From: Trichodesmium erythraeum IMS101
GTDB taxonomy: Bacteria > Cyanobacteriota > Cyanobacteriia > Cyanobacteriales > Microcoleaceae
DNA length: 32,000 nucleotides
Reading direction: 5' to 3'
Assembly (NCBI RefSeq): GCF_000014265.1
Contig: NC_008312.1
Span: 6,090,001 to 6,122,000, forward strand
Below the pieces are notes generated by a model. It had not been told where the DNA came from. It saw only the letters and a program-made list of their open reading frames with translations, and did not search any database. Positions 378 to 21,404 of the stretch are shown piece by piece. Position 1 is the first letter of the stretch, and the number at the start of each line of letters is the position of its first letter. Position numbers and translations under genes: made by a program.

Positions 378-525
378 GGTTTTTTTCTAAGAAATTTATA
401 CTTATGAAATTATAGCGCTTTGATGATCTTACGTCAACGGTTTCACTGTAAAATTCAATGTCAAACTGTCAAATATTATAGGTGCATGGGAAGAGCCTCA
501 AGAGTAACCCAAACAAAATAAAATC

Positions 526-541
526 TGTGTTCAGTTTCACC
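526..541. promoter_or_regulatory. CRP/NtcA-family-like palindrome (copy 1 of 3)
   Basis: TGTGT-TCAGTT-TCACC versus the CRP-type consensus TGTGA-N6-TCACA (8/10 match). Also fits a GTG-N8-CAC version of the NtcA GTA-N8-TAC pattern. Confidence 0.25.
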
Positions 542-651
542 TGTTTCTACCCAACCTACAGTTATTACTGATAACTCAAATTCCGGTTAAACTGTCAAAT
601 ATTATAGGTACAGAGGAAGAACCTCAAGAGTAACCCAACCAAAATAAATTC

Positions 652-667
652 TGTGTTAGGTTTCACC
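652..667. promoter_or_regulatory. CRP/NtcA-family-like palindrome (copy 2 of 3)
   Basis: TGTGT-TAGGTT-TCACC, exactly 126 bp after copy 1. Confidence 0.25.
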
Positions 668-777
668 TGTTTCTACCCAACCTACAGTTATTACTGATAA
701 CTCAAATTCCGGTTAAACTGTCAAATATTATAGGTACAGAGGAAGAACCTCAAGAGTAACCCAACCAAAATAAAGTC

Positions 778-793
778 TGTGTTCGGTTTCACT
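778..793. promoter_or_regulatory. CRP/NtcA-family-like palindrome (copy 3 of 3)
   Basis: TGTGT-TCGGTT-TCACT, exactly 126 bp after copy 2. Its centre lies about 50 bp upstream of the ATG at 836. Confidence 0.25.
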
Positions 794-835
794 TAGTTCT
801 ACCCAACCTACACTTATTACTGATAACTCAAATTT

Positions 836-3529: not shown

Positions 3530-4068
3530 ACCCCTGCTTACAGCCTATCCCCGAGCCCTAACCTCTGAAAACCTTGTGGATATTAGAAGAAAAGAGAGAA
3601 AGAGTATTGTCGTCTTAAAAAAAATATCTTTTTCAATACACTTTTTCTCCCGAAACACCCTCTTAAAACACCTACCCATAACTTTTATATTTTTTTTCAA
3701 ACTTGATATTAGGAAAAATATTTATAAAAATATTTATAAAGCATAGCTTTCAGGGGGTGAACTCAAAAATTAAAACTAATTCTAGTAATTCTAGTGTAGC
3801 TCTAGAAATACACTTGTAATTACCACTTCAAGCAAGCTATCTCTAAAAGCTTCTTATTGCTTCCTCTTACCTCACTTCAGTATGACTTACATTAAAAAAA
3901 AATTTTACTTACATCATATCATAATTTAACATTTATATCAAGTCTTAACAGGTATAAATTTTCATAGCTTTTTATCTGGTTTTCCACACAAGCATAAACT
4001 AGACACTCCAAGCAAGAATTTGTTACATTTATTTACAGTAAAGTTAATAAATATAAACAAAATAAATT

Positions 4069-4296
4069 ATGGTTATCGTTATTTCACTATTTGTAATTGC
4101 TTGGTTAGCTGCTGCAGTAATAGGAAGTCAAGCTTACTTCTTAGGTGAGCAAACAAAGCCTATCCACGAGCGTAACTGGAATTCTCAATCTTTTGAAAGC
4201 TTATCTGAATCTTTTACAGGCAATAGATTAGACTACAACAAGCGGGTACCCGCATATAGTATGGATGCCTATGCAAGTCAGAGTTTTAATAGTTGA
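4069..4296 (+). CDS. small hypothetical membrane protein (75 aa, single N-terminal TM helix)
   Basis: ORF MVIVISLFVIAWLAAAVIGSQAYFLGEQTKPIHERNWNSQ...SMDAYASQSFNS. It has a hydrophobic N-terminus and a polar tail. Local G+C is visibly higher than the flanks. No clear SD. Its last 37 nt (4260-4296) form the first cassette of the downstream array. Confidence 0.5.
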   Translation: MVIVISLFVIAWLAAAVIGSQAYFLGEQTKPIHERNWNSQSFESLSESFTGNRLDYNKRVPAYSMDAYASQSFNS

Positions 4297-5240
4297 AATG
4301 TTTAGTTAATAGTCATTTCAGTTATCAATTATCAATTATCACCTACCCTTATCTAGACTTTTTCTCTTGTTTCTGAAAGCTTGAATTATTTGACATTAAC
4401 TATGGATGCCTATGTAAGTCAGAGTTTTAATAGTTGAAATGCTTAGTTAATAGTCATTTCAGTTATCAATTATCAATTATCAACTACCCTTATCTAGACT
4501 TTTTTTTTGTTTCTGAAAGCTTAAATTATTTGACATTAACTATGGATGCCTATGCAAGTCAGAGTTTTAATAGTTGAAATGCTTAGTTAATAGTCATTTC
4601 AGTTATCAATTATCAATTATCAACTACCCTTATCTAGACTTTTTTTTTGTTTCTGAAAGCTTAAATTATTTGACATTAACTATGGATGCCTATGCAAGTC
4701 AGAGTTTTAATAGTTGAAATGCTTAGTTAATAGTCATTTCAGTTATCAATTATCAATTATCAACTACCCTTATCTAGACTTTTTCTTTTGTTTCTGAAAG
4801 CTTGAATTATTTGACATTAACTATGGATGCCTATGCAAGTCAGAGTTTTAATAGTTGAAATGCTTAGTTAATAGTCATTTCAGTTATCAATTATCAATTA
4901 TCAACTAACCTTATCTAGACTTTTTCTTTTGTTTCTGAAAGCTTAAATTATTTGACATTAACTATGGATGCCTATGCAAGTCAGAGTTTTAATAGTTGAA
5001 GTGCTTAGTTAATAGTCATTTCAGTTATCAATTATCAATTATCAACTAACCTTATCTAGACTTTTTCTTTTGTTTCTGAAAGCTTAAATTATTTGACATT
5101 AACTATGGATGCCTATGCAAGTCAGAGTTTTAATAGTTGAAATGCTTATTTAATAGTCATTTCAGTTATCAATTATCAATTATCAACTACCCTTATCTAG
5201 ACTTTTTCTCTTGTTTCTGGAAGCTTAAATTATTTGACAT
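4260..5240 (+). repeat. array block 1: seven A-type units (ORF-tail cassette, no terminator)
   Basis: Each unit carries TATGGATGCCTATGCAAGTCAGAGTTTTAATAGTTGA, which reads MDAYASQSFNS* like the end of the 4069-4296 ORF. The core variant is TTTCTGAAAGCTT. Confidence 0.95.
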
Positions 5241-5242
5241 TA

Positions 5243-5280
5243 GCTCTAGCAGATATATTCTGTTAGAGCCATTTTTTTTT
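5243..5280 (+). terminator. intrinsic terminator-like hairpin + T9 (B cassette 1 of 14)
   Basis: GCTCTAGCAGA-TATAT-TCTGTTAGAGC forms an 11-bp stem with one G-U pair and a 5-nt loop. It is followed by CA and then nine T (5272-5280). Confidence 0.7.
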
Positions 5281-5383
5281 AATTCAATAAAGCATAGTCA
5301 TTTCATTTATCAATTATCAATTATCAACTACCCTTATCTAGACTTTTTCTCTTGTTTTTGGAAGCTTAAATTATTTGACATTA

Positions 5384-5421
5384 GCTCTAGCAGATATATT
5401 CTGTTAGAGCCATTTTTTTTT
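5384..5421 (+). terminator. intrinsic terminator-like hairpin + T9 (B cassette 2)
   Basis: Sequence identical to 5243-5280, in 141-bp phase. Confidence 0.7.
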
Positions 5422-5665
5422 AATTCAATAAAGCATAGTCATTTCATTTATCAATTATCAATTATCAACTACCCTTATCTAGACTTTTTCTCTTGTTTTT
5501 GGAAGCTTAAATTATTTGACATTAGCTATGGATGCTTATGCAAGTCAGAGTGTTAATGATTGAAATGCTTAGTTAATAGTCATTTCAGTTATCAATTATC
5601 AATTATCAACTACCCTTATCTAGACTTTTTCTCTTGTTTCTGGAAGCTTAAATTATTTGACATTA

Positions 5666-5703
5666 GCTCTAGCAGATATATTCTGTTAGAGCCATTTTTT
5701 TTT
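5666..5703 (+). terminator. intrinsic terminator-like hairpin + T9 (B cassette 3)
   Basis: Sequence identical to 5243-5280, in 141-bp phase. Confidence 0.7.
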
Positions 5704-5806
5704 AATTCAATAAAGCATAGTCATTTCATTTATCAATTATCAATTATCAACTACCCTTATCTAGACTTTTTCTCTTGTTTCTGGAAGCTTAAATTATTTG
5801 ACATTA

Positions 5807-5844
5807 GCTCTAGCAGATATATTCTGTTAGAGCCATTTTTTTTT
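5807..5844 (+). terminator. intrinsic terminator-like hairpin + T9 (B cassette 4)
   Basis: Sequence identical to 5243-5280, in 141-bp phase. Confidence 0.7.
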
Positions 5845-5947
5845 AATTCAATAAAGCATAGTCATTTCATTTATCAATTATCAATTATCAACTACCCTTA
5901 TCTAGACTTTTTCTCTTGTTTTTGGAAGCTTAAATTATTTGAAATTA

Positions 5948-5985
5948 GCTCTAGCAGATATATTCTGTTAGAGCCATTTTTTTTT
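5948..5985 (+). terminator. intrinsic terminator-like hairpin + T9 (B cassette 5)
   Basis: Sequence identical to 5243-5280, in 141-bp phase. Confidence 0.7.
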
Positions 5986-6088
5986 AATTCAATAAAGCAT
6001 AGTCATTTCATTTATCAATTATCAATTATCAACTACCCTTATCTAGACTTTTTCTCTTGTTTTTGGAAGCTTAAATTATTTGACATTA

Positions 6089-6126
6089 GCTCTAGCAGAT
6101 ATATTCTGTTAGAGCCATTTTTTTTT
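6089..6126 (+). terminator. intrinsic terminator-like hairpin + T9 (B cassette 6)
   Basis: Sequence identical to 5243-5280, in 141-bp phase. Confidence 0.7.
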
Positions 6127-6229
6127 AATTCAATAAAGCATAGTCATTTCATTTATCAATTATCAATTATCAACTACCCTTATCTAGACTTTTTCTCTTG
6201 TTTTTGGAAGCTTAAATTATTTGACATTA

Positions 6230-6267
6230 GCTCTAGCAGATATATTCTGTTAGAGCCATTTTTTTTT
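6230..6267 (+). terminator. intrinsic terminator-like hairpin + T9 (B cassette 7)
   Basis: Sequence identical to 5243-5280, in 141-bp phase. Confidence 0.7.
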
Positions 6268-6511
6268 AATTCAATAAAGCATAGTCATTTCATTTATCAA
6301 TTATCAATTATTAACTACCCTTATCTAGACTTTTTCTCTTGTTTCTGGAAGCTTAAATTATTTGACATTAGCTATGGATGCTTATGCAAGTCAGAGTGTT
6401 AATGATTGAAATGCTTAGTTAATAGTCATTTCATTTATCAATTATCCATTATCAACTACCCTTATCTAGACTTTTTCTCTTGTTTCTGGAAGCTTAAATT
6501 ATTTGAAATTA

Positions 6512-6549
6512 GCTCTAGCAGATATATTCTGTTAGAGCCATTTTTTTTT
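6512..6549 (+). terminator. intrinsic terminator-like hairpin + T9 (B cassette 8)
   Basis: Sequence identical to 5243-5280, in 141-bp phase. Confidence 0.7.
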
Positions 6550-6652
6550 AATTCAATAAAGCATAGTCATTTCATTTATCAATTATCAATTATTAACTAC
6601 CCTTATCTAGACTTTTTCTCTTGTTTCTGGAAGCTTAAATTATTTGACATTA

Positions 6653-6690
6653 GCTCTAGCAGATATATTCTGTTAGAGCCATTTTTTTTT
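6653..6690 (+). terminator. intrinsic terminator-like hairpin + T9 (B cassette 9)
   Basis: Sequence identical to 5243-5280, in 141-bp phase. Confidence 0.7.
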
Positions 6691-6793
6691 AATTCAATAA
6701 AGCATAGTCATTTCATTTATCAATTATCAATTATTAACTACCCTTATCTAGACTTTTTCTCTTGTTTTTGGAAGCTTAAATTATTTGAAATTA

Positions 6794-6831
6794 GCTCTAG
6801 CAGATATATTCTGTTAGAGCCATTTTTTTTT
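6794..6831 (+). terminator. intrinsic terminator-like hairpin + T9 (B cassette 10)
   Basis: Sequence identical to 5243-5280, in 141-bp phase. Confidence 0.7.
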
Positions 6832-6934
6832 AATTCAATAAAGCATAGTCATTTCATTTATCAATTATCAATTATCAACTACCCTTATCTAGACTTTTTC
6901 TCTTGTTTTTGGAAGCTTAAATTATTTGACATTA

Positions 6935-6972
6935 GCTCTAGCAGATATATTCTGTTAGAGCCATTTTTTTTT
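6935..6972 (+). terminator. intrinsic terminator-like hairpin + T9 (B cassette 11)
   Basis: Sequence identical to 5243-5280, in 141-bp phase. Confidence 0.7.
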
Positions 6973-7075
6973 AATTCAATAAAGCATAGTCATTTCATTT
7001 ATCAATTATCAATTATCAACTACCCTTATCTAGACTTTTTCTCTTGTTTCTGGAAGCTTAAATTATTTGAAATTA

Positions 7076-7113
7076 GCTCTAGCAGATATATTCTGTTAGA
7101 GCCATTTTTTTTT
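7076..7113 (+). terminator. intrinsic terminator-like hairpin + T9 (B cassette 12)
   Basis: Sequence identical to 5243-5280, in 141-bp phase. Confidence 0.7.
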
Positions 7114-7216
7114 AATTCAATAAAGCATAGTCATTTCATTTATCAATTATCAATTATCAACTACCCTTATCTAGACTTTTTCTCTTGTTTCTGGAAGCTT
7201 AAATTATTTGAAATTA

Positions 7217-7254
7217 GCTCTAGCAGATATATTCTGTTAGAGCCATTTTTTTTT
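7217..7254 (+). terminator. intrinsic terminator-like hairpin + T9 (B cassette 13)
   Basis: Sequence identical to 5243-5280, in 141-bp phase. Confidence 0.7.
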
Positions 7255-7773
7255 AATTCAATAAAGCATAGTCATTTCATTTATCAATTATCAATTATCA
7301 ACTACCCTTATCTAGACTTTTTCTCTTGTTTCTGGAAGCTTAAATTATTTGACATTAGCTATGGATGCTTATGCAAGTCAGAGTGTTAATGATTGAAATG
7401 CTTAGTTAATAGTCATTTCAGTTATCAATTATCAACTACCCTTATCTAGACTTTTTCTTTTGTTTCTGAAAGCTTGAATTATTTGACATTAGCTATGGAT
7501 GCTTATGCAAGTCAGAGTGTTAATGATTGAAATGCTTAGTTAATAGTCATTTCAGTTATCAATTATCAATTATCAACTACCCTTATCTAGACTTTTTCTC
7601 TTGTTTCTGGAAGCTTAAATTATTTGACATTAGCTATGGATGCTTATGCAAGTCAGAGTGTTAATGATTGAAATGCTTAGTTAATAGTCATTTCAGTTAT
7701 CAATTATCAATTATCAACTACCCTTATCTAGACTTTTTCTCTTGTTTTTGGAAGCTTAAATTATTTGACATTA

Positions 7774-7811
7774 GCTCTAGCAGATATATTCTGTTAGAGC
7801 CATTTTTTTTT
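7774..7811 (+). terminator. intrinsic terminator-like hairpin + T9 (B cassette 14, terminal unit of the array)
   Basis: Sequence identical to 5243-5280. The array breaks off about 13 bp after its T tract. Confidence 0.7.
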
Positions 7812-8234
7812 AATTCAATAAAGCTTGGATAAATACAATTTAGTTATTAGTTATGCCTTATTTTTTATCCCTTATCAGTACCTCCAATGTTAGCCAGAAG
7901 CTTGAGACCTTATTCCTCCTTAATACAGCCCTTTTCAAATTGATGAACTACATCGCCATAACCAAAACCTTGCTGTAGTCTAGCAACATTAAAACTGCTG
8001 TAAGCCAGCCCTATAGATGTAATACTCAAACTTCTATCAGGGGATATAGCTACCGTACTCACTCCCCATGGGCAGATCCCAGAGCAAATAAAACAAATTA
8101 TTCAATTATGAAACTAATTCTTTCTAGTAATAACTTATCAATCATAGTTTGAGTTTTATCATTCTTGAACTTTTTCTAATTATAAGAAACAAATTATATT
8201 ACCGTTCTGAAAAACATAAGATTATCTAAATGAA

Positions 8235-8408
8235 CCTTTAATTTTTATCTAAATAATTAGTTCCATTCCTAGTTCACCCTAGCATGATCAGCGTTATCCA
8301 GTTTCCCCGGCAAAAATTAATTATCCTTTGATTTTTATCTAAATAATTAGTTCCATTCCTAGTTCACCCTAGCATGATCAGCATTATCCAGTTTCCCCGG
8401 CAAAAATT
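8235..8408. repeat. tandem duplication, 2 x ~84 bp with a 90-bp period
   Basis: CCTTTrATTTTTATCTAAATAATTAGTTCCATTCCTAGTTCACCCTAGCATGATCAGCrTTATCCAGTTTCCCCGGCAAAAATT occurs at 8235-8318 and 8325-8408. An inverted 11-mer GAACTAGGAAT at 8412-8422 is complementary to ATTCCTAGTTC at 8355-8365. Confidence 0.9.
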
Positions 8409-8861
8409 TCGGAACTAGGAATTAAAATTAATAGCTAAACTTAACACTAAATTCAAGTGTTTATCACAACTAAAACCACATTATTCACATCTCTAAACAA
8501 GTTCTGAGCAAAATAGAAAATGCTTGACATTACTCTAAAAGCTAGGGCATGTTAATTCATAATTTGACATATTTTCAGCTTTTTCTTTACTATAGTAAAT
8601 AGTAAATAATAAATGCTAAAACTACTAGTATCTCAATCTGAAATTTACTAAGGTAAACTAATAGTACCTCTGTCGCCTAAAAATTTATATTACCATTAGT
8701 ATAATTTTTAGAACTGCTTGACCTTATCCAAGCTAAATTCAATCACATTATCTTTTACTCTAGCTAATATTTCTCAGTACTATTTTCCCAAAACACTAGT
8801 AAAATTATCGTAAGGCTTAATTTTTTATCAAGAACAGCAACCTCTATATACTTAGGATAAA

Positions 8862-9791
8862 ATGAGCATAAATCAACCATTGAAAATTGTTTCTCTAATT
8901 CCTAGCGCTACAGAAACTATTGCAGCATTAGGATTAACTAAAGCTATTGTTGGTAGAAGTCACGAATGTAACTATCCTCCAGAAATTCAAAACTTGCCCG
9001 TTTGTACTAAACCTAAATTTAACCCTGATGGTAATAGTCGGGAAATTCACGAACGCGCTACGGAGTTATTACAGTCTGCTTTAAGTGTCTACCTTGTGGA
9101 ATTAGAAACATTAGAAAAATTACAACCTACTCATATTATTACTCAAGCTCAATGTGATGTTTGTGCCGTTAGTTTGGCAGATGTAGAAACAGCCGTCAAA
9201 AGTTTAACAAAAACCAATCCTCAAGTTATCTCTTTAGAGCCTAATTTATTAGCAGAAGTTTGGGCAGATATGGAACGAGTAGCAAATATTTTAGGAGTGA
9301 ATGGGAATGAAGTAATTTCTCAGTTGAAAAAAAGGGTAGCAGCTTGTGCAGAAAAAACGCAAAATTTAGCAACTAATAACATTCCAAAAGTAGCTTGTAT
9401 TGAGTGGAGTAACCCACTAATGGCAGCCGGAAACTGGATACCTGAATTAGTACAAATTGCTGGTGGAAATTCATTATTTGGAGAGTTGGGAAAACATTCT
9501 CCATGGTTAAAATTTGAGGAGTTATTAACTGCTAATCCAGATGTTATAATTTTTATGCCTTGTGGCTTTGATTTAGAACGTACTCGCCAAGATACTTTAG
9601 ACTTAATTAAAAGCTCAGAATGGCAAGATTTACCTGTAGTTAAATCAGGAAAAGTTTATATTACTGATGGTAATTCTTATTTCAATCGTCCGGGACCAAG
9701 ATTAGTAGATTCTTTAGAAATTTTAGCAGAAATTTTACACCCAGAATTGTTTAATTTTGGTTATCAAGGGATAGGCTGGGTGAAGTTATAG
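8862..9791 (+). CDS. periplasmic-binding-protein fold, BtuF-like cobalamin/iron-complex binding protein
   Basis: 309-aa ORF. KIVSLIPSATETIAALGL at the N-terminus and ...YFNRPGPRLVDSLEILAEILHP at the C-terminus are characteristic of the PF01497-type (BtuF/FhuD-like) family. No obvious signal peptide. Confidence 0.75.
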   Translation: MSINQPLKIVSLIPSATETIAALGLTKAIVGRSHECNYPPEIQNLPVCTKPKFNPDGNSREIHERATELLQSALSVYLVELETLEKLQPTHIITQAQCDVCAVSLADVETAVKSLTKTNPQVISLEPNLLAEVWADMERVANILGVNGNEVISQLKKRVAACAEKTQNLATNNIPKVACIEWSNPLMAAGNWIPELVQIAGGNSLFGELGKHSPWLKFEELLTANPDVIIFMPCGFDLERTRQDTLDLIKSSEWQDLPVVKSGKVYITDGNSYFNRPGPRLVDSLEILAEILHPELFNFGYQGIGWVKL

Positions 9792-10240
9792 TAATCCTAT
9801 TTTAGTTGTAATATTTATTTTGGTAGTAGCTAAATAAGATTTGTAGAAAAAAGTTTTATAAGTCAGATTAAAACTCAGAATTTATAACTTAGGAGAAATA
9901 ATAATTAATTAGGATATCCTTGATATCCTTCTTCAAAATAGCAATCAAAAATACCAAACTTGGTAAACATAGCAAGGATTTGAAAAACAATTATTAAGAC
10001 TTTTAATTCGTTTTTATAAATTTTAATTTACTCATACTTTATCTTGCTACTACATCTAAAGTAAAATCATTATTTTTTTAAATAAAAATACGACTATATT
10101 AAAGATTTTTTTTACACTTATCAAAGTATGGAAAGCTTATAATTATAGTTTAATACCTAAAAATTTTTGCTATTATATCAACTATATTGCCCGATAATTC
10201 ATCTGTGTAATCTTAATCTCAAAAAATCAGATAATTTATT

Positions 10241-11284
10241 ATGTATAGCCAACAAGTACAACAAATAAATCAACCCCAAAAAAATTCAGATATTCAATTA
10301 ATAAATATGTGGTTACAACAAATTCATCCCATACAGCAAAATTCTCATTTATATATAGCTCAAATGTTTCTAAAATTTATCAAAAAACCACTAAAAAAAG
10401 TAACTTCAGCAGATGTTATAGCATTTGCAAATGTGTATGGTGTTCGCTCTCATAACTCCCATTCCAATCAACAAAAACGAATAGAAACTATTAATTCCCT
10501 GCTAAAATTTGGTCAAGAAGCTGGCATACTTCCTAGAAATCAAAAAAAAACATTCTCTCCAAATACCACAAACTTCAAAACATCAGTTTATTCTCAAAAT
10601 AAAATTAAGAATTACCGAACTACTGGGAAACAGCAAAAAAAGCCATTAAACTGGTCCCAATTATTTAACCTACAGCTAGCTTCCTCCGTATTAATTGTTT
10701 TCATATTACTTATGGCAATCTTACAACTATTTCGACAAGTGAGTGGAAGTACAAATGCTAATCAAAATAAGTCAGTAACATCAGTAGTTATGCCTAAAAT
10801 AGATCCAACCAAAAATTGGGCTTATCCAGTAAATGTTCCTAGGATCAGAGCTTTTCTAGATACGATCGCTGTTACAGAAGGGACAACAGGACCGAAAGGT
10901 TATTATCGTCAATATACAGGTAGTCATTTCTTAAGCTTTGAAGACCATCCTAGAGAACTTAAATGTGCCAATAGTAATGGCAAGAAACTTTGTTCTGATG
11001 CAGCTGGTAGATATCAGTTTTTGAGTACTTCCTGGGATAGGTTTGCTCCTGTGGTCAAAGCTCAGAACTTTAGTCCTACCTATCAAGACCGTGTAGCTAT
11101 AGAATTAATTCGAGACAAAAATGCTCTGAAAGATATTGAAGAAGGGAGAGTAAAAGAAGCTTTTCAAAAGTTATATATGGTCTGGCCTTCATTTGGAGAA
11201 ACTGAAACAGATGTGGAACAACTCATGCCTAAACTTGTAGGAACTTATGAACAGAAATTAGCTCTTTATCAAATCAAAAATTAG
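10241..11284 (+). CDS. GH104 (phage lambda R-type) lysozyme / lytic transglycosylase domain protein with a TM helix and an N-terminal integrase-SAM-like region
   Basis: The C-terminal ~150 aa (FLDTIAVTEGT...YRQYTG...FEDHPRE...AAGRYQFLSTSWD...FSPTYQDRVAIELIRDKNAL) align by eye with lambda R lysozyme (FLDMLAWSEGT...DHPRK...GAGRYQLLSRWWD...FSPKSQDAVALQQI). A TM helix sits at LASSVLIVFILLMAILQLF. The N-terminal ~100 aa resemble a phage-integrase N-terminal SAM-like domain (weak). Confidence 0.85.
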   Translation: MYSQQVQQINQPQKNSDIQLINMWLQQIHPIQQNSHLYIAQMFLKFIKKPLKKVTSADVIAFANVYGVRSHNSHSNQQKRIETINSLLKFGQEAGILPRNQKKTFSPNTTNFKTSVYSQNKIKNYRTTGKQQKKPLNWSQLFNLQLASSVLIVFILLMAILQLFRQVSGSTNANQNKSVTSVVMPKIDPTKNWAYPVNVPRIRAFLDTIAVTEGTTGPKGYYRQYTGSHFLSFEDHPRELKCANSNGKKLCSDAAGRYQFLSTSWDRFAPVVKAQNFSPTYQDRVAIELIRDKNALKDIEEGRVKEAFQKLYMVWPSFGETETDVEQLMPKLVGTYEQKLALYQIKN

Positions 11285-11504
11285 AATTAATTTCTGGGAA
11301 ATCAAAAGTTATAAGTAATCTCTAACTAAATTTGATCATCTATAAATATCTAAGCCCTATCTGGGAATCAAAAGTCAATCTCCATCTTATATAAAATCCA
11401 GTTGAATAGTTATTGTTTTGTTGGGGTTAAGAAGTAAGAGACCTAACCCTAACTACTACCACCAATAGGAGTAGATAAAATTGAAATTAATGATATATAA
11501 ACCG

Positions 11505-11580
11505 ATAGCTAGATGAGACCTCGGGAGAAACTTACCAAAAGTTCAAATAGCTAGATGAGACCTCGGGAGAAACTTACCAA
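11505..11580. repeat. 34-bp direct repeat x2 (period 42 bp)
   Basis: ATAGCTAGATGAGACCTCGGGAGAAACTTACCAA at 11505-11538 and 11547-11580. Confidence 0.9.
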
Positions 11581-11869
11581 CAGTGCAAAACAAAAAATTA
11601 TCAAATTTATCCCACAATCATTTGAGTACATTAATTAACTATCAGTAATATGATCTTTTCTCATCAAAAATTACACTCAGCTTTTAACTACAATTCTCCT
11701 CCCAATCTTATAAACTTAGTTATATTTTCTGATTTTTCATCCTCCAGCCCCGTTATAGAAGAAGAAAATACCTGAGAGAATTTGAATCTTTATAAATTTA
11801 AAATTCCCCCCCTACTTGCGTAGCGTTATAGAATATTTGTTTTTACTAATTTTAATTAACAAAAAAATT

Positions 11870-12787
11870 ATGTTATGCCCTATTTGCGGTACAGAATACC
11901 TTGAAACAGTGCCAGAATCTTGCTCTATTTGTGAATGGAATTTAACATCTGAATCTGCTTTCTTTGCTACGGCAGAAATTTACCAAAAAAAAGAACAAGC
12001 ACAGTTGAACTGGGCTAGAAAAACTTGGCAAATGCTACAAGCCAAAGAACATTCTAGCCATCATAATCACAATTCTGGTTTACCAAATGTAGCAGCAGAT
12101 AAAATAAATGACAAACAGAATTACTTAGCCATTCAAAAACAACTAGATCAAATACAAGCTCAATTACATCAGGCAACAATAGAACGCCTTCAACTTCATT
12201 CTCAACTAGAATGGGTACTTTATCATCTCGAACAACTTAACTCAGAGACTTTAGCACAAACCCTATATCGTATTGATGAAAAGTTGCATTCCATACCAAC
12301 TCCAGAACCGCCAATGTCAGAAGTGGGGATAAACTATAACCCGTTAATAAATCTTTTGGCTGCTAGAAAATGGCGAAAAGCAGATGAACTTACTTGGGAA
12401 CTGCTGCTGCAAGCTACTTTGAGAGAGGAAGAAGGTTGGCTACACTTAGCAGACATTGAGAATTTTCCTTGCACAGACCTTTGTACTATTAATTGGCTTT
12501 GGGAATATTATAGTGATGGATTGTTTGGCTTAAATACGCAACAACGTATATGGGAAAGTGTGAGTGGGCAATATGAAGATTTTTGCGATCGCTTGGGATG
12601 GCGAGATGGAGAAAATTGGAAATATTATGATGAACTCTCTTTTAACCTGGAAGCTCCAGAAGGTCACTTACCTATAATTATATGGCGACGACGTGCTTGT
12701 TATGGGGTAGGTCAAATGATGGCTGGAGAAACTTTTTTGGCTTTGAGAAGACGGGTGACAACTTGTACTGGTATGACTACGGACTAA
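11870..12787 (+). CDS. zinc-ribbon / coiled-coil / GUN4-domain protein
   Basis: The track ORF opens at TTG 11816; the in-frame ATG at 11870 (MLCPICGTEY...CSICEW, a Cys4 zinc ribbon) is the more plausible start. The C-terminus (RKWRKADELTWELLLQ...GWLHLADIENFPCTDLCTINWLWEYYSDGLFGLNTQQRIWESV...LGWR...LSFNLEAPEGHLP) matches the GUN4 domain pattern. A HIP1 site lies at 12585. Confidence 0.85.
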   Translation: MLCPICGTEYLETVPESCSICEWNLTSESAFFATAEIYQKKEQAQLNWARKTWQMLQAKEHSSHHNHNSGLPNVAADKINDKQNYLAIQKQLDQIQAQLHQATIERLQLHSQLEWVLYHLEQLNSETLAQTLYRIDEKLHSIPTPEPPMSEVGINYNPLINLLAARKWRKADELTWELLLQATLREEEGWLHLADIENFPCTDLCTINWLWEYYSDGLFGLNTQQRIWESVSGQYEDFCDRLGWRDGENWKYYDELSFNLEAPEGHLPIIIWRRRACYGVGQMMAGETFLALRRRVTTCTGMTTD

Positions 12788-13788
12788 ATTTCAAATAGAT
12801 GAGAATTTTTTAATAGTAATAGTGACTACTATTTGTTACTTATATAAGCAAAATAAATATTTATGAAAGAATAATTTTAAAATTTCCATGTTAAGCAAAT
12901 TATGAACAAATGTAAAAATAGAGGGTTTATTGACACTATTCTCAATTATTTTACGACTTTACTTGATTTGGAGTCTATGATATGATTTTCTAAATTCACA
13001 GGCTTGGTTTGACTAACTTATTAAAAAAAAGCTGCAAACTATCTTAAATTGGTATAATGTTAAGCAATATTAAATATAATCTCGGGACGAAAAAAACAAA
13101 TTTTCCAGAAACAACTTAACATATAGAAGCCCAAAATTTGACAAAAACATATACTTATGCATACATAATTTTGCTAAACCAACGTTTTTTGTAATAAGCC
13201 ATCAATTTTTTTTGGAGGGATGAGCTATAATAAAAAATATTCACTCCTTAGCATTACCATTTATTTCTGTTCTTACCAAGAACGAACTACTTCCTCAAAA
13301 ATTAGATTTTTTTTCCACTTGAGTGATAAAAATCAACTAGTAAAGTCAATATTAGGGTTAGTTAACTTTGAGTGATTTGATGATATTTTTTTGATATAAA
13401 TCTATATATACTTAAGAGTACAAAGTTAAGTTCTCCTAAAAAAACTATTAGCCTTAAAAGCTGAAAGTATTATAGGAAAAGGCTTACCGTATTTATCGTT
13501 ACTTTGAGAAAGTGTCTCACCTTGAGATAGCTATAAGCCAAAGCTCGCAATAGTTATTCCCAGAACTTCCCACTGTCTAGTACATATACTTATACAGCTA
13601 TAACTTATCAAACTTAACTGATTGATTGTGGTTAAATTAGACCAAAAGAGTAATTTGTGGTGTAGACTCAACCCACCGCCTAACCAGATTTCTGATAAAT
13701 TGCCTAACTGCAAGACTTTGTAATTAAAACTTCTATGAGCGCCAACCCACCTAAGCGACATATAGTTATTTTAAATAAAACTGAGACA

Positions 13789-14641
13789 CTATTTGGCACA
13801 ATAATTACGAATAACTTCATCAAGAGATGTCTTGATAGGTGAATAAATTCTAGCTCTTTTTAATGCACTAAAATCATGTTCTTAGTCATTTAAATCAGGA
13901 GAGTATTTTGGCAAAAATAGTAATTGGTGACCCCCTGCTTCTACTAATTCTCTAATAACGTTTTTTCGTAATTAATAGGTGAATTATCCGTGCAGCAGTA
14001 CACTGGGAATTTTTAATAATGGTAATAAATGTTTATCTAACCATTGTTCAAATCCCGCGACATTTATACTTCCTTTGAATATAATTGGTGCTATTAAATC
14101 TTTTTCCTTTTTTCTTCTCCCGGCTACTAAATTTTCTCTTTTACCTCGTTTTCCCTCTTGCTCACCATAAACTTTTTTCTCTTTTTTTGACCAGGCATAA
14201 ATACAGTCTTAATTATCTTTAAATCCTGATTCATCAATAAATACAAGGCTTTTACTTCCAAATTTTTTTATCAAATTTCGTAGTTTCTGATAATATTTTA
14301 TCCTTTCTTCTATATTTCTTTCTCTATAACAAAGTTGTTGATTTTTTCAAGGAAAATTCATTTTTTTTAAAGCATAAAATATAGCTGGTTGATTAACTCC
14401 AAATTTTTTAGCTCTGTCTGACAATAAGCAACTCTAGATTTGCTGTTACAACTTTTTCTAATTCTTTCCAATCTAATTTTATTTGACAACTTTTTACCTT
14501 AGTTGCTGACAATTTTGGCCTAAATAAACATCTATATATCGAAGCTATTCCTATCACAAATGTATGAGCTGCTTTAGTAATTGTACCGCCATTTTCTACA
14601 AAATTTATTACTTTTTATCTGAAGCCTAAACTGTCAGGCAT
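13789..14641 (-). pseudogene. IS630-family (Tc1/mariner-like DDE) transposase relic with multiple stops and frameshifts
   Basis: Reverse-strand reading from ATG 14639-14641: MPDSLGFR*KVINFVENGGTITKAAHTFVIGIASIYRC... then ...LVAGRRKKEKDLIAPIIFKGSINVAGFEQWLDKHLLPLLK... and ...LLFLPKYSPDLND*EHDFSALKRA...EVIRNYCAK*. The YSPDLNPIE-type motif is the IS630 hallmark. At least 8 in-frame stops or frame changes. Confidence 0.7.
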
Positions 14642-15663
14642 AGTTCAAAATATTTTCTAGTTGACTTAATTTTATTATACCCAATTCTTGTTTCAATCTT
14701 AATTAAAACTACTATAAATGTTTAAAAGCAAAGACTTTCTTGTTGGCATTAGGAGATACCCCATAGTAATTTAATCTTACTGTCCATTGTTCACAATCAT
14801 TAGCACTAATAGTATTGGCTACTCATTGTTGTATCAGTAATAGCAGCTTCAGTTACTGAAAGACAAGTAGCAACAAAGCTATTATCAAAGGAAAGAAATA
14901 ACAGACATAAATCTACCTTGTGGTTATTACTATTTTTGCCAATGCTGCCTTGACGGAAGAAGATTTCATAAAGTTAATCATAGATTTTTTTTGCTTAATC
15001 ATCGAAAAACTTTTATGTCCAAAAGAAACTATATGGCTTTAAGATTTGACTCAAACGATGGGTAAAACGAAAAAACATAATGTTGGTTTAATTTGTAGAG
15101 AAGATTCAACAAGTATGAATAGAGAAATGCTACTAGAGAATAGTCCCCAGAAATAAATTTTTTATACCATCCTCTAACATTATCTACACTTTTGTTCGGC
15201 TTCCCTCACAGTTATAGGAATCGCCATTACTATATAATTAAACATATGGGGGTTAATAATTAACTCTCAAAGTCTTTCATTATATTGGCTAAAGCCTTTT
15301 GCTTTTGCTAATCGAAAAAAGAGCCAAAGGGAAGGATAAAATCAGTTCATAATTATAGGATTAATGAGGCAGAATAATTCTGAAGGCTTTAAGGGACAAA
15401 TGCATCCCACTACCTCCTTCATTTCCCGTTTCGTCCTAATGCTCTTAAATGCAACGTCCGTAGAAAATGTGAATAATTTATATCCTCCATGGGTGCGGTT
15501 GGAGCAAAAAAGCTGTTAGTTCATTTCTTAATAGTTGCAATTTCACATAAGCATAGTATTATTTTTTCCTTCTTTACTATAAGGAGGGAGGGTTTGCTCC
15601 TAACTTCAGCTATAATCCAACTTATTGTATAAATAAATAGTATCTTAGATAGATTTTTGAGCA

Positions 15664-16587
15664 ATGAAAATAGCTATTACAGGAGCAACAGGGTTTGTAG
15701 GGACTCGCTTAGTGGAGCGTCTACATTCAGAGGGAGAAAAAATATTAGTATTAACCCGCAACCTAGAAAAAGGAAAACGCATTTTTCCATCTTCAGCATA
15801 TCCTAATCTAGAGGTAATAGGTTACGAACCACAAAAGTCTGGTGCTTGGCAAAAATCTATAGATGGCTGTGACGGTGTCGTTAATCTAGCGGGTGCTAGT
15901 ATTGCCGATGAACGTTGGAGTGCCAGTCGCAAGAAAGAGATTATGGGTAGTCGCAAGGTAACTACAGAAAAATTGGTCGAGGCGATCGCTCAATCTAATT
16001 CTAAACCATCAGTATTAGTAAGTGGTTCAGCTATTGGTTATTATGGCATGAGCGAAACGGCAACTTTTGACGAACAGAGCAATAGTGGGAATGATTTTTT
16101 GGCAGAAGTTTGTCAGAAATGGGAAGCTGCTGCTCAACCTGTAAAGAATGTAGGAGTAAGACTAGTTATTTTACGGATCGGTATTGTATTGGGTTTAGGA
16201 GGCACTATCTCAAAAATGCTTGCTCCGTTTAAATTATTCGCTGGTGGTCCTATTGGTAATGGCAGGCAATGGTTTTCTTGGGTACATATTGACGACCTAG
16301 TTGGTTTAATTCTGCATTCTCTACGCAACCCAGAAATGCAAGGAGTATTCAATGCTACTTCTCCTAATCCTGTACGAATGGAAGAATTTTGTCAAGGTTT
16401 AGGAGAAGCTTTAAATCGACCCTCTTGGTTACCCGTACCTGATTTTGCCATTGAATTGTTGTTGGGAGATGGTGCAGTAGTTGTATTGGAAGGTCAAAAA
16501 GTTTTACCGAAGCAGACTCAAGCTTCTGGATTTGAGTATCAATATCCTACTGTTAAACCTGCCCTAAAAAATATTTTAGCTCCTTGA
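15664..16587 (+). CDS. TIGR01777/YfcH-type NAD-dependent epimerase family protein (SDR39U1-like, C-terminal DUF1731)
   Basis: 307-aa ORF. It has the Rossmann motif MKIAITGATGFVG and family-typical GSAIGYYG...RIGIVLG...GNGRQWFSWVHIDDL. A HIP1 site lies at 15982. Confidence 0.85.
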   Translation: MKIAITGATGFVGTRLVERLHSEGEKILVLTRNLEKGKRIFPSSAYPNLEVIGYEPQKSGAWQKSIDGCDGVVNLAGASIADERWSASRKKEIMGSRKVTTEKLVEAIAQSNSKPSVLVSGSAIGYYGMSETATFDEQSNSGNDFLAEVCQKWEAAAQPVKNVGVRLVILRIGIVLGLGGTISKMLAPFKLFAGGPIGNGRQWFSWVHIDDLVGLILHSLRNPEMQGVFNATSPNPVRMEEFCQGLGEALNRPSWLPVPDFAIELLLGDGAVVVLEGQKVLPKQTQASGFEYQYPTVKPALKNILAP

Positions 16588-16595
16588 ATTTTGTC

Positions 16596-16652
16596 AAAAA
16601 AAACAAGCTGCCATTATTTAATTTGCAAGGCAGCTTGCCCAAATCATTTTTT
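16596..16652. terminator. bidirectional intrinsic terminator between convergent genes
   Basis: Perfect 9-bp stem CAAGCTGCC (16604-16612) / GGCAGCTTG (16629-16637). An A8 run sits just upstream, which is a T8 tract immediately after the stem on the minus strand and serves the 16686-16904 gene. On the plus strand a T6 run follows 9 nt after the stem. Confidence 0.7.
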
Positions 16653-16685
16653 AATCTCAAGATAGTTTCAAAAACCTTTATTCCT

Positions 16686-16904
16686 TTATTTATAAAGGGT
16701 TGCTGATTCTTCCATTAATTCTTTTGTTTCTTTTAAGTTATCTGGATCTACATAATGACATACTGCATCATCTAGACAGATTAAAGCCCAACCAGATTCA
16801 TCTATACTCATTAGTTTATAATCACCTTCCTGAATAAAAAATCCTTTGTGGTTACGAGTTTCCGGCTTAACATTAACGTCATTAAGATCATTATTAAATG
16901 TCAT
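16686..16904 (-). CDS. small hypothetical protein (72 aa)
   Basis: ORF with a good SD (AAGGAG, 10 nt before the ATG) and a strong terminator downstream. No family recognised. Confidence 0.6.
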   Translation of the reverse strand: MTFNNDLNDVNVKPETRNHKGFFIQEGDYKLMSIDESGWALICLDDAVCHYVDPDNLKETKELMEESATLYK

Positions 16905-17559
16905 GGTATTTCAACTCCTTAGCATTATTCAAAAAACGGTTTTAGTGTCTTCAAGCTTATATCATTTCGATACTTGATATTACTTCGTCTTCGGTGGTAA
17001 TCTAAATACAAACGTCACCTCATAAGAAACGTTTTTAACTGATAAGTCGATTGTTAACTTACTTTTTCTTCTTCCCTACTCATTTTTTTTGACTGTGAGC
17101 AATTTTTTGATATTCTCATACTATCTTTACCTATAATTATGACAATAATTTCCCTTAACTATAATCACTTCGTAGAATATTGATTGAATTATTAACTTCT
17201 AAGTTTTATACTTAGATTTAAGTTTTGTCAATCATCTTCTTTAAGCTTGAACTTGAAATTTGAAGCCTAAACTAGCATTTTTCAAGTTTTTGATCAATTA
17301 TGATCGAGGTACTCACGGTAAGCCATAAGCCTTTAGGAATTTTCTACTTTTATGATTGATGATTAAGTAATCTCTGAAGTTATAAAGATAATAACATAAC
17401 TCCTTCAGTTTGTTCGTAAAGTTTTTATATTAATCATTAAGTTTTTTAAATATTATATCTTTCTCATCCTACCCTAGTTATTATTAGTACCTTTGGGTAA
17501 ATCAGGACTCTTAAAAGCTTATTTATGTTTTAACTATTTAATTTAGTAAAAAAATCAGC

Positions 17560-17982
17560 TTAAATATCAAATAACCATTGTTTAATTCGAGCCAGTGCTG
17601 GCCATTCACCTCTTCTATCAAAACCATCCTTAATATTATTTTTAATTTCTTTGAGCCAATCTTCATCAGCCATAATCAATTGTTGGGCTTTCTCTACATG
17701 AGGTCTAACACCCTTTTTTTCTATTTCTAACATTGCTAAAGCCAAATTAATTCTCCCCTGTGGATCGTCTGGGTTAAGCTTAAATCCTTCCTTAGCTGCT
17801 TTATGAGCTGATTTAGGTTTTTTCTCTAATAAATATAACCACGATAAACTAATCCAACTACTACTACTTTTAGGAGAGCGATCTGTAATTTCTTTAAATA
17901 GTGGAATTAAAGTACCTGCCTTTTCTCCAGCTTTATATCTTTCTAGCCCTTCTTTATATAGTTCTTCTGGTGTCTTAGTCAT
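17560..17982 (-). CDS. TPR-like repeat protein (140 aa)
   Basis: ORF with TPR-like helices (ELYKEGLERYKAGEKAGTLIPLFKEI..., ...AHKAAKEGFKLNPDDPQGRINLALAMLEIEKKG). Confidence 0.65.
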   Translation of the reverse strand: MTKTPEELYKEGLERYKAGEKAGTLIPLFKEITDRSPKSSSSWISLSWLYLLEKKPKSAHKAAKEGFKLNPDDPQGRINLALAMLEIEKKGVRPHVEKAQQLIMADEDWLKEIKNNIKDGFDRRGEWPALARIKQWLFDI

Positions 17983-18568
17983 AATAATATTTTTCGAGGT
18001 TTTCTAATTTAGAAAATTATAACACGTTTGATTTCACCCAGGTAAAGTACAAGGGGGCAAGATGCGTATTCTATATATTTTTTTAGGATTAATAGTGATA
18101 TCTCATATCACCCTCCCTTTACCGGTCGAGTTTCTTAAGTTAAAAGGTTTATGGGAGCTAAATATTAGTATTAGTATGAGCATTTAATACTTTTCAATGA
18201 ATAATATATTTTGGAGTTGTTGGCTGTAAAAAAAATAAACTTTTCAAAAGCTTGCTCTATAATGGTTTCATTATTTTCATCCTTGAAAACGCTTAAACAT
18301 GAATTTATTTTGAGTTGAAGCTATTTTTTCGGCTTAATTCCCGACAACTCTTTTATTTCTACTTTATTTCTACCAAAATCACCAAATTTGATCTCACATA
18401 CAAGGAATATACTATAATTGCTATACCAAAATTTACTTCATAATCAGGGGAACAGTATTATTTGCTCCCCCAATATTGATTTTTCTATGCTCCTATATAT
18501 AATTCCAGAAGACACAGAAAATACAAAACCTAGATCTTCTCAGAAACTAGATTTTTTTGAAATTAATT

Positions 18569-18925
18569 TTAAGCAGAAAAGGAATTACCACAACCACAGG
18601 TTTGAGTTGCATTAGGATTAGTAAATTGGAACCCACCGCCAATTAAAGCATCACTATAATCAAGCATCAAACCATAAAGATAAAGGATACTCTTGCGATC
18701 GCAAACCACCTTAAATCCATCATAATCAAAAACTTCATCATCCTCTCTAATTGTGCTAGGGTCGGCAAAATCCATCATATAAGACATTCCAGAACATCCG
18801 CCTTGACGTACCCCTACTCGTAGGCAAAGGTCTTTTCCTTGTTTATCTCTCAAGGATAGAACCTGCTTTACAGCAGTTTCGCTCATCATAATTCCTTTTT
18901 GTTGAGACTGAGTAGTTTTTGTCAT
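18569..18925 (-). CDS. iscA: HesB/IscA-family iron-sulfur cluster insertion protein
   Basis: [19 protein letters not shown]... and the C-terminal ...[10 protein letters not shown] are the family's conserved Cys motifs. An AAGGAG SD lies 10 nt upstream of ATG 18925. A HIP1 site lies at 18694. Confidence 0.85.
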
Positions 18926-19799
18926 TTGTTTTTAGCTCCTTATATTGTTATAGCTGTCGAATAATAATTTGTAACTACTTAGATATATTACTTCTTATGT
19001 TATCCTGAAAACTGAAATTTTAACTACCTTAAATAATTGTTATCAATCAAAAATATTTTTTCAATGGTCTGCATTTAAAACTGAATTGTAACTCTTACCT
19101 GATGTTATGTAAGATATACTTTAGTTAGGATTTAGCTTAAAAATGTGTAATTAATTTTATACAGTGCCTTATACTTAATTTCCCTTTAATACTATTCAAT
19201 TCTTAAATATTATACCTCTGATAATAATACTGATTTGGGAATTATTGATAAAAGTTTGAGAACCTTTTCTTGTGAGGTCTATTAAGAACAATAGCAAGAA
19301 CTAGAAATGATAATGGATATAAACATTTAGGGTTTACACCAAAAAGTTGAAGAGTGAGTTCAGGGAATGGGGTATGGGCAATCAAGCGTTAAACTTTTAA
19401 ACGGCGTATTGTAAATTTCAAAAAAAACAGTATATTTTTTACTCTACAGCACTTTTGCTGGAATTAGCTGTTGTTATAGTAAGTAATCTAAATGTTTAAA
19501 ACCTTAGTTGCAGCAGATTAATTTTTCTACATTTTTATTCTTTAGGTCAAGGAACACCCGAAGTACCACAATTATTATTTGCTTATTTTTTTTTGCACTT
19601 TTCTGACAATAAGTCACTACCAACAGTTATGTATCATTAAGACTATAACAGTCTGTATATTGGTTTTGGCAAAATTCCATACTGAAAAAGTTTGGGAAAG
19701 TCAAATATTTGACCATAGCACAAAAAAACTGACAGCAGTTACCGTTACTAGTAAGGTACACCAAGTGCAAGCAAAATGATTGTAATAGAATGCTTTCAC

Positions 19800-20662
19800 C
19801 ATTTATACTGTACTTCATTTTCTTGCTTATCCGCTCTCTATAGCCACTCTACTATTTTAAAATAACTGCAAAGACGATCAAGTTGTCTTCTGAAATTTTG
19901 GGATTTTCACATAATATCTTCAACGAGGTTTTGCTCAGGGGCATTCAGAGGGATTTTTGTACAATTTATCCACCATTCTGATTCGGGTTTTTCAGTATTA
20001 ATTTTAATTAAATATTCTCGAAATTATCTCAAATTATGAGCAGTGACTCTATCTCCAAATATTACTCATCTTTTTGCCTACTTTTGTGGCTATAAATAGT
20101 TAAATAAATTCCATAGTTTTTTCAGTATTTATACTTCTTTTTAAGGTCAACAAATTATTGGCTTTTATCATCTAGGTCACCAGAATAAGCAGGCCTTTAT
20201 TTTTCATTTTTATTCTTTATCTTTGTTCTTTTGTCGCCATAAAATCAAAGATAAATACATAGGATATGACACTACTAAATCCTAAACAATTCCTACTTCA
20301 TGGGTTATCTTTGTAGTTTCTCTTTTGCTAATTTATTCTCTATAACTTTTTTCTGCTTTCACTAGTTCATCATTTTTAGTAGTATTGTGTTTACAAGTTT
20401 TTTCTAAAACTCCTAACCCCTTTTTTTAGTATCTTTATAATAACTTTGATTAGATTCAAAAACTACACTATATTGTGTTGATAAATAATTTTATCAGTCT
20501 GATAGTCTTAGATAATCTTGTGCTCCATACCCAGAAATTGTATTCTCTTTTTATACTGGCATTAATGTGGCATATTCATCCTTGAGAGTTGAAGCCTGAA
20601 ACTTTCTACGCCTAAAAAAAGTTCTGAGTCTTTCAACTTCAAATCTGGAAACTTTGAGACAC
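19800..20662 (-). mobile_element. second, more decayed IS630-family element relic (boundaries approximate)
   Basis: Reverse-strand reading of 19905-20035 gives HNLR*FREYLIKINTEKPESEWWINCTKIPLNAPEQNLVEDIM*. This matches the ...AxxHxSxxVxxYL...LPxYxPExNPxEdiW C-terminal DDE region of IS630-type transposases. The 5' region shares TGAAGCCT(G)AAACT with the relic at 14621-14634. Confidence 0.5.
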
Positions 20663-21253
20663 CTTAAATCATTCTTTGTATTTCTATTTTAGTTTTTTTG
20701 ACTAAATCATTTTTGCCCCTTTGCCCCCAAGTCTCTTGTTACTTATTTGGCCTCTTTTGTCTGAAGCAGAAAATTATCTAGTTCATTTATAATATTTATT
20801 CTTTATCTTTTAAGTCGGGATATTATTTTTACTATTATATCTGTTAGGGCTTATTTGAGATTGCTATATTGAGATTGCCATATATATATATTGATTTATT
20901 CAGAATATAAATATTTAGTCCAATCTTGCATTTCTACATCTTGGAATCCACCAATAGCAATGGTCGGTATATATATAACTAATGGCGATTTGTACTCTCT
21001 ATTGACAAGTACCACGCACTTTTCAAATTTAGTGATGGATAGGGTTACCTTTGAATTTTTAGTTATAACTAGTTAATGTCATACAGTGATGAATAAATAC
21101 TCATTTATACTTTTTTGGCAAATAACATTAACTACTGTATGGTATAATTATATAAAATAAAATATATATATAAATTATATAGTAAGTTTGAATACTTTCG
21201 TATGATTATATTGCTTAATTGTTCCTAGTAATTGTTTAGATAGTCAAATAGAC

Positions 21254-21307
21254 AATTCTTCTCATGCTGGCAAGGCCGTTAATTCTTCTCATGCTAGCAA
21301 GGCCGTT
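21254..21307. repeat. 27-bp tandem duplication
   Basis: AATTCTTCTCATGCTrGCAAGGCCGTT x2 (21254-21280, 21281-21307), about 100 bp upstream of the ATG at 21405. Confidence 0.9.
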
Positions 21308-21404
21308 AGAGAAAAATGTATATAAAAATACATTAATCAAAATATGGTTTAAGGTTAAGAGAAAAAAATATCCCGCAATTGCTTCACTTTCACAGGCTTA
21401 ATTT

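Follow-up and report, generated by a model that had tools for sequence, protein, structure and literature searches.

Bacterial minisatellites, or variable-number tandem repeats (VNTRs), such as the mycobacterial interspersed repetitive units (MIRU), are intergenic head-to-tail repeats of 40–150 bp by gene ends; their units are mosaic and they differ from strain to strain. Terminators can likewise stand in series, as in rrnB T1-T2 and engineered double terminators, where two or three different intrinsic terminators follow one another on one strand. Extragenic hairpins at gene 3' ends are also known from the repetitive extragenic palindromic (REP)/bacterial interspersed mosaic element (BIME) and miniature inverted-repeat transposable element (MITE)-type repeats, which are sometimes clustered and are dispersed over many loci, and filamentous cyanobacteria carry heptamer repeats called short tandemly repeated repetitive (STRR) sequences. 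Here we describe a tandem array of 25 units at the 3' end of a small photosystem II gene (psb35-related) of Trichodesmium erythraeum IMS101, in which one intrinsic terminator module occurs 14 times. The locus lies in a 32,000-nt stretch of contig NC_008312.1 (positions 6,090,001 to 6,122,000, forward strand), hereafter called the window, to which the coordinates refer. The psb35-related gene probably has this module as its native Rho-independent terminator, which would have been copied as a passenger of a tandem amplification in T. erythraeum.

Seven tandem repeats with units of 736–973 bp were described previously in a long intergenic region of IMS101 (Pfreundt et al. 2014, PMC4143802). That array resembles the present one in that near-identical tandem units, in the same organism, each carry a duplicated 3' part of the adjacent gene. 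However, its units are ~6 times longer, the duplicated gene part is on the opposite strand, and each repeat has a mapped transcription start site (TSS) and a ~260-nt RNA, whereas the 141-bp unit described here is built around the gene's terminator. The original prediction had named no obvious precedent for such a stack of terminators, and a literature search for natural tandem-terminator arrays found none relevant, but the array with a duplicated gene 3' end in the same genome does provide one (PMC4143802). In comparison with minisatellites and VNTRs, the 25 copies, the complete terminator and the gene's last codons are unusual, and there is no sequence relationship. Unlike double terminators, the array has 14 identical copies from repeat expansion, and unlike the REP/BIME and MITE-type repeats, its hairpin was found only at the psb35-related locus, in T. 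erythraeum and relatives. The array recalls STRR in that its cores hold TTATCAA x3, with GTTATCA x2 in relatives and GGAGACA x4.6 nearby in Dapis; however, the sequence differs and the heptamers are merely a sub-feature of the 141-bp unit. The module itself is like other intrinsic terminators in its 11-bp stem, 5-nt loop, U9 tract 2 nt past the stem, co-oriented position 3' of a gene and conserved pairing. It is unlike them in that it occurs 14 times in 2.6 kb, with the first copy ~950 nt past the stop codon, as opposed to 90–170 nt in relatives. The locus is an ordinary conserved terminator within an unusual lineage-specific tandem amplification, and the intrinsic terminator and the bacterial tandem repeat are both of known kinds.

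The array consists of head-to-tail units with a period of 141 bp at 4309–7824, as located by Tandem Repeats Finder (TRF), with 91% matches across cassette types, and the true left end of the repeat is at 4258, within the upstream gene. Each unit is composed of a 90-nt core and a 51-nt cassette, and all units are 141 bp long except two of 140 bp and one of 134 bp. The core holds TTATCAA x3 (e.g., 4326–4346), and the cassette is of type A, A' or B. Cassette A, found in units 1–6 and at the gene's own end, contains the final 11 codons of the upstream open reading frame (ORF) together with its stop. Cassette A', found in five units, is an older-looking, hairpin-free copy of the last 11 codons and stop, and cassette B, found in 14 units, carries the hairpin and T9. 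The cassette order is A x6, B B A' B x5, A' B x6, A' A' A' B, with the A' units (starts 5435, 6281, 7268, 7409 and 7543) scattered among B units. Unit 23 (7409–7542) is the one of 134 bp; it holds two heptamers, one TTATCAA short, and an A-type core is joined in it to an A' cassette. The gene and the parts of the array are as follows.

4069–4296, plus strand: psb35-related gene, 75-aa photosystem II protein (PF26637/DUF8210), from homologues and a PF26637 match
4258–4308, plus strand: the gene's own A cassette (its final 11 codons with TGA, plus 12 nt), same sequence as the A cassettes of units 1–6
4309–7824, plus strand: array of 25 units, from TRF and unit alignment
4309–5152, plus strand: A block, six units repeating the gene 3' end (MDAYASQSFNS and stop), hairpin-free, presumed long 3' untranslated region (UTR)
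5435–5575, plus strand: A' unit without hairpin, its cassette (5525–5575) being ATGGATGCTTATGCAAGTCAGAGTGTTAATGATTGA, which encodes MDAYASQSVND and stop
6281–6421, plus strand: A' unit, cassette 6371–6421
7268–7683, plus strand: three consecutive A' units (7268, 7409 and 7543), cassettes 7358–7408, 7492–7542 and 7633–7683

We next characterized the terminator module. A window-wide search for GCTCTAGCAGA-TATAT-TCTGTTAGAGC followed by CA and T9 found 14 exact copies, all in the same orientation. The 27-mer GCTCTAGCAGATATATTCTGTTAGAGC gave 14 matches in the whole window, all on the plus strand with 0 mismatches; no extra match appeared in the window when up to 3 mismatches were allowed, and 0 were expected in shuffles. 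Invariance extends beyond the hairpin to the whole 51-nt B cassette in all 14 copies. The hairpin folds into 11 pairs, including one G-U and 5 G-C, with a 5-nt loop (−17.5 kcal/mol, z = −5.4), whereas the minus-strand hairpin is weaker (−14.7), has an internal mismatch and is preceded by the homopolymer. An intrinsic terminator is expected to have a stable stem-loop, with a stem of 5–14 bp and a loop of 3–8 nt, and a U-rich tract 0–2 nt after the stem, on the transcribed strand only. A terminator scan found 14 sites, all on the plus strand, vs 1.6 expected, with no minus-strand site, and no terminator-like site between the stop codon (4296) and 5243. The module has a stem-loop of this kind, a U tract, a site 3' of a co-oriented gene, and pairing kept in evolution as described below. 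These results bear out what had been claimed from a first look at the sequence, namely 14 identical co-oriented modules at 5243–7811 (the exact 27-mer search places the end of the last one at 7811), each with an 11-bp stem including one G-U pair, a 5-nt loop, CA and T9, canonical on the plus strand only, as the scan, the folds of both strands and the hairpin of relatives all indicate. The A block proved free of terminators as claimed, and a transcript from the small ORF, meeting none for ~950 nt, would run ~1 kb to the copy at 5243–5280, as was also proposed. Copies 2–13 below were called by 27-mer match and terminator scan.

5243–5280, plus strand: terminator copy 1 (hairpin, CA and T9), 946 nt past the stop, the first one facing the psb35-related transcript
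5384–5421, plus strand: terminator copy 2
5666–5703, plus strand: terminator copy 3
5807–5844, plus strand: terminator copy 4
5948–5985, plus strand: terminator copy 5
6089–6126, plus strand: terminator copy 6
6230–6267, plus strand: terminator copy 7
6512–6549, plus strand: terminator copy 8
6653–6690, plus strand: terminator copy 9
6794–6831, plus strand: terminator copy 10
6935–6972, plus strand: terminator copy 11
7076–7113, plus strand: terminator copy 12
7217–7254, plus strand: terminator copy 13
7774–7811, plus strand: terminator copy 14, in the last unit and followed by the unique flank ATAAATACAATTT

At window 8000–27999, 10 terminator-like sites were found vs 10.4 expected, and all of them were weak. 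Cyanobacteria have no Rho, and most of their transcription units end otherwise than at a canonical intrinsic terminator (PMC12642595). The predicted terminator of the psb35-related gene is the only clearly canonical one in the window, which matches reports of a canonical minority in cyanobacteria. Folding of the A block revealed no significant structure (z = +1.46), and the 141-nt unit showed little excess structure outside the hairpin.

To place the module in evolution, we compared the locus with those of relatives. A single hairpin followed by a T6–T9 tract is located 90–170 nt past the orthologous stop in six related sequences representing five distinct lineages, i.e., L019 and L020 (Dapis sp.), L021 (= L032), L024/L027, L029 (= L034) and L040, a Microcoleaceae metagenome-assembled genome. 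This hairpin is preceded by CTCTTGTTTCTGAAAGCTTGAATTATTTGA, which equals the 3' part of the array core, and the flank 3' of copy 14 aligns with the sequence 3' of the single-copy terminator in relatives. Across seven sequences, 97.4% of the stem cells were paired vs 40–48% when the 3' partners were slid. Two stem pairs have compensatory changes (U-A/U-G/C-G and A-U/G-C), and three have one-sided wobble changes; 22 of 500 column shuffles reached the observed values, and RNAalifold finds the same helix in the seven sequences. In L040 the loop is TGAGT, not TATAT, and the stem and T-tract are kept, indicating that the conserved thing is the structure and not the −10-like hexamer that the array hairpin contains. 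The single hairpin of relatives, together with these pairing-preserving changes, argues that B is the native intrinsic terminator of the gene. Furthermore, the 5' part of the core, GTCATTTCAGTTATCAATTATCAA, matches the sequence 3' of the single-copy terminator in L029 and L021, so that the 141-bp unit would be a circular permutation of the terminator's neighbourhood. As judged from this alignment, such a permuted unit is the expected outcome of a tandem duplication centred on the terminator.

Each component of the array is single-copy in Dapis, L021, L024, L029 and L040. The common Trichodesmium gene order is glycosyltransferase, psb35-related gene and cobalamin-binding protein, as followed through protein homologues and exact-protein matches; in other Trichodesmium lineages with this same order the intergenic distance is only ~300 nt, and both the array and the hairpin are absent. 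All contigs with the T. erythraeum-type protein, on the other hand, pass straight from the gene into the array, which is by this comparison specific to T. erythraeum. The view of a purpose-built terminator stack could therefore not be upheld, since the multiplicity comes from a T. erythraeum-specific tandem amplification of the gene 3' end that is absent in sister lineages. Most short-read assemblies break just past the gene or collapse the array to A-B-B. The first array units differ between environmental contigs; L001 and L002 (A-B-B) may be collapsed.

Several other features were seen at orthologous loci. Two Trichodesmium lineages, with proteins 88–89% identical, have a ~300-nt spacer without the conserved hairpin (L013 5221–5523 and L017 4184–4503), and that of L017 contains a GC-rich insert of ~180 nt (CCTCCCCGGCCTAAAGGCACGGGG...) inside an otherwise AT-rich spacer. 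In L002, a hybrid cassette at 4420–4480 (ATGAATGCC...GTTAGAGTTTTAATGATTGA) mixes A, A' and B-like bases; it may be a genuine recombinant, or else a chimera of short-read assembly. Okeania sp. (L028 4692–5113) has an unrelated 224-bp x1.9 tandem repeat with 98% matches and GC-rich GGGGCGGG motifs; it begins 20 nt past the orthologous stop, indicating that the gene's 3' flank was independently tandem-duplicated in another genus. Near the Dapis terminator lie GGAGACA x4.6 and TTAATAA x5.4 (L019 6505–6536), heptamer repeats reminiscent of cyanobacterial STRR.

The ORF at 4069–4296 encodes a product with one transmembrane helix and has 334 cyanobacterial homologues, which carry the name 'photosystem II protein, Psb35-related' and reach E values as low as 1e-41. 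By this conservation across cyanobacteria the ORF is a real gene. The region just 5' of its ATG (TTTACAGTAAAGTTAA) is conserved in relatives, and a promoter-like site stands further upstream.

4000–4029, plus strand: promoter-like site TAGACA-18-TACATT, a consensus match only, ~40 nt 5' of the psb35-related gene

The gene now ends in SQSFNS, and A' encodes SQSVND, which is nearer to the C-termini of relatives (SQCIND, SQRVNG and SQRING); a natural protein variant, P0001, ends in SQSFND. This pattern suggests that the terminal codons of the psb35-related gene take part in exchange with array copies. The amplification would have a coding consequence, in that a photosystem II accessory protein has its 11 C-terminal codons in the array, where they are apparently exchanged (SQSFNS, SQSFND, SQSVND).

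We also compared the units with one another. Among the 14 B units, five variable sites are present in the 90-nt cores and none in the 51-nt cassette. The chance of five random sites all missing the cassette is (90/141)^5, about 0.11, and the five A' cassettes are mutually identical although terminator-free; the perfect identity of B is therefore no evidence for selection. The claim that 14 copies are identical despite polymorphic cores stands as regards the identity, but the cassette does not differ significantly from the core (P about 0.11), and the A' cassettes share the identity. All four variant combinations are present at core sites 65/86 and 32/65, in violation of the four-gamete condition, and the array units are, by this test, recombinant mosaics, with unit 23 chimeric. 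As to cassette length, A/A' and B cassettes are each exactly 51 nt long, with 22/51 ungapped positions in common, and their counterparts in the single-copy relatives are distinct segments 90–170 nt apart.

On the basis of the array anatomy, the terminator orthology, the pairing conservation, the restriction to a single lineage and the mosaic units, we propose the following scenario. A segment of ~141 bp, from ~45 nt 5' of the terminator to ~35–45 nt 3' of it, would have been duplicated in tandem, after which the array would have grown, with unequal recombination and gene conversion reshuffling its units. The final 11 codons of the gene would have been drawn in as an alternative cassette, whose equal length may come from an in-register exchange in which cores pair with an offset of one period. 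RNA polymerase coming from upstream of 4069 would then pass the six terminator-free A units and be released at the first hairpin and its U9 (5272–5280 in the copy at 5243–5280), giving a 3' UTR of ~1 kb vs 100–200 nt in relatives. The other 13 copies would meet residual read-through at most and would have no separate role, being redundant by-products, and the identity of the B cassettes would stem from concerted evolution after a recent amplification and not from selection acting copy by copy.

The apparent 2.5-kb terminator stack becomes, in this scenario, an evolutionary case in which a conserved terminator and a gene's last codons were captured in a lineage-specific repeat. It provides a documented example of how the unusually large non-coding fraction of Trichodesmium grows by local tandem amplification of gene ends, in parallel with the highly transcribed seven-repeat array. 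Furthermore, with 14 identical canonical terminators, the locus lends itself to studying how efficient termination is, and how much read-through occurs, in a phylum that lacks Rho and in which most 3' ends are non-canonical (PMC12642595).

Several points weigh against the scenario of a passenger terminator. The support from pairing conservation is modest but consistent, and rests on seven related sequences, and the equal 51-nt length of the A and B cassettes is accounted for only by the tentative in-register exchange model. Termination at 5280 and the silence of the later units are what we infer. Only about 22% of transcription-unit ends in S. elongatus are attributed to canonical terminators (PMC12642595), and terminator function is therefore not to be assumed in every cyanobacterium. 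Active transcription units would fit both the 100% identity of the 14 copies over 51 nt and the perfect TTGACA 16 nt 5' of TAnnnT in 9 of the 14 B units, and in the tandem array described earlier from this genome, every repeat is provided with a very strong TSS (PMC4143802).

These last points lead to the idea that each B unit is autonomous and that up to 14 near-identical small RNAs of ~140 nt are made from the array, which we consider unlikely. A sigma-70-like match, TTGACA-16-TATTCT (10/12), overlaps the hairpin in 9 B units, with TTGAAA (9/12) in 5, and in the seven-repeat array, which also has a duplicated gene 3' end, there is a TSS per repeat (PMC4143802). Of the primary reads, 44.7% come from that array, and non-coding TSS make up 26.7% of the genome's total (PMC4143802); as in that array, a 3' part of the neighbouring gene is duplicated in the unit, here in the A/A' cassettes. 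The −10 box would lie in the hairpin loop and 3' arm, and a start within the 3' arm would give an RNA that cannot form the hairpin. Such an RNA would continue past T9, take in the 90-nt core and stop at the hairpin of the following unit, and transcripts from upstream would be stopped. However, the genome is AT-rich, and 10/12 matches are about as frequent in it as the background predicts (90 found vs 84.6 expected from shuffled sequence in 20 kb of the window outside the array); the −10-like hexamer, which sits inside the conserved hairpin, is lost in L040 with the structure kept. In addition, relatives carry TTGATT, not TTGACA, the A units carry the same TTGACA without a usable −10, and the 141-nt unit is without structure beyond the terminator. 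Table 1 of PMC4143802, which gives the top transcripts, names no RNA derived from the array; its entry 'ncr3647195, in between repeats' may or may not belong to the psb35-related locus. The background frequency of the 10/12 match and the loss of the −10-like part in L040 also weaken the case for the promoter that, in the original prediction, each later B unit would need unless it served in a fail-safe stack. If the units were individually transcribed, the interest of the array would rise, and it would be the second repeat-derived source of abundant non-coding RNA in Trichodesmium, arising from a gene's recycled terminator. We regard as less probable still a fail-safe stack or insulator, in which a single copy is leaky and the array shields the cobalamin-binding protein gene (8862) from read-through of a highly expressed photosystem gene. 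All copies are intact and co-oriented with both genes, canonical terminators are scarce in the Rho-less cyanobacteria (PMC12642595), and terminator-like sites elsewhere in the window are at chance level, as such a role would have it. On the other hand, one copy suffices in relatives, and the hairpin is missing altogether from other Trichodesmium lineages of the same gene order, whose two genes stand only ~300 nt apart. Moreover, ~1 kb of extra spacer follows the array, the hairpin-free A and A' units were amplified just as much, and the identity of B is statistically indistinguishable from drift and homogenisation.

The array could also act at the DNA level, either as a multi-site protein-binding platform, given its 75 TTATCAA heptamers, or as a structural or recombinogenic element in which the hairpins are incidental. 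The three direct heptamers per core, and the heptamer repeats that stand near the terminator of relatives too, are in line with this, but we think it very improbable, as the nearby genes include none for a candidate binding protein, tandem heptamers are common and neutral in the genomes of filamentous cyanobacteria (STRR), and the array is absent from sister lineages. There is just as little to be said for a partial assembly artefact, in which the array is real and its copy number and unit order in the assembly are unreliable. Short-read assemblies do break after the gene or collapse the array to A-B-B; however, the window lies within a 7.75-Mb contig, the distinguishing variants follow a non-periodic order, unlike that of a collapse-and-expand product, and independent contigs confirm both edges and the A-to-B transition.

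Known types of element were also considered and rejected. A repeat-protein gene was rejected in that the frame through the B units is open only since 141 = 3 x 47, the ORFs start with TTG and are F/I/L/S-rich, and A' units interrupt them; the open frame through the B units has no recorded gene call. DNA homologous to the array is 3' UTR in relatives, which counts against a protein-coding reading. A CRISPR array was rejected since the sequence between the hairpins is itself repeated, 97–100% identical, with no unique spacers. A dispersed element of REP/BIME or MITE type was rejected because no copy is present in the window outside the array. The 19-nt core word, when searched in the genome collection (without the source genome's copy), gave only 2 chance matches in unrelated bacteria. 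In metagenomes, a degenerate hairpin pattern found the orthologous locus only, adding one orthologue (L029), and 3 chance matches, and two scans of viral contigs found nothing related to hairpin or core. Rfam (at gathering thresholds) and tRNA scans of the window gave no matches.

The neighbouring genes are cyanobacterial and encode a GUN4-like protein, a carotene desaturase-type oxidase, CobQ and a cobalamin-binding periplasmic protein, of which the last is the next gene co-oriented with the psb35-related one.

8862–9791, plus strand: periplasmic (cobalamin-)binding protein gene, next co-oriented, which begins ~300 nt past the psb35-related gene in other Trichodesmium lineages

The ~1-kb spacer between the array and this gene contains a 90-bp x1.9 tandem repeat (window 8235–8408). 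The same repeat is present on the environmental contigs L001 and L002, and the other Trichodesmium lineages are without the whole spacer. Finally, a 126-bp x3 tandem repeat with 94% matches is located at window 463–834 and ends exactly at the ATG (836) of a gene for an 897-aa PMT-family glycosyltransferase, indicating that the upstream region of this gene was triplicated and that the window holds a second tandem repeat at a gene end.

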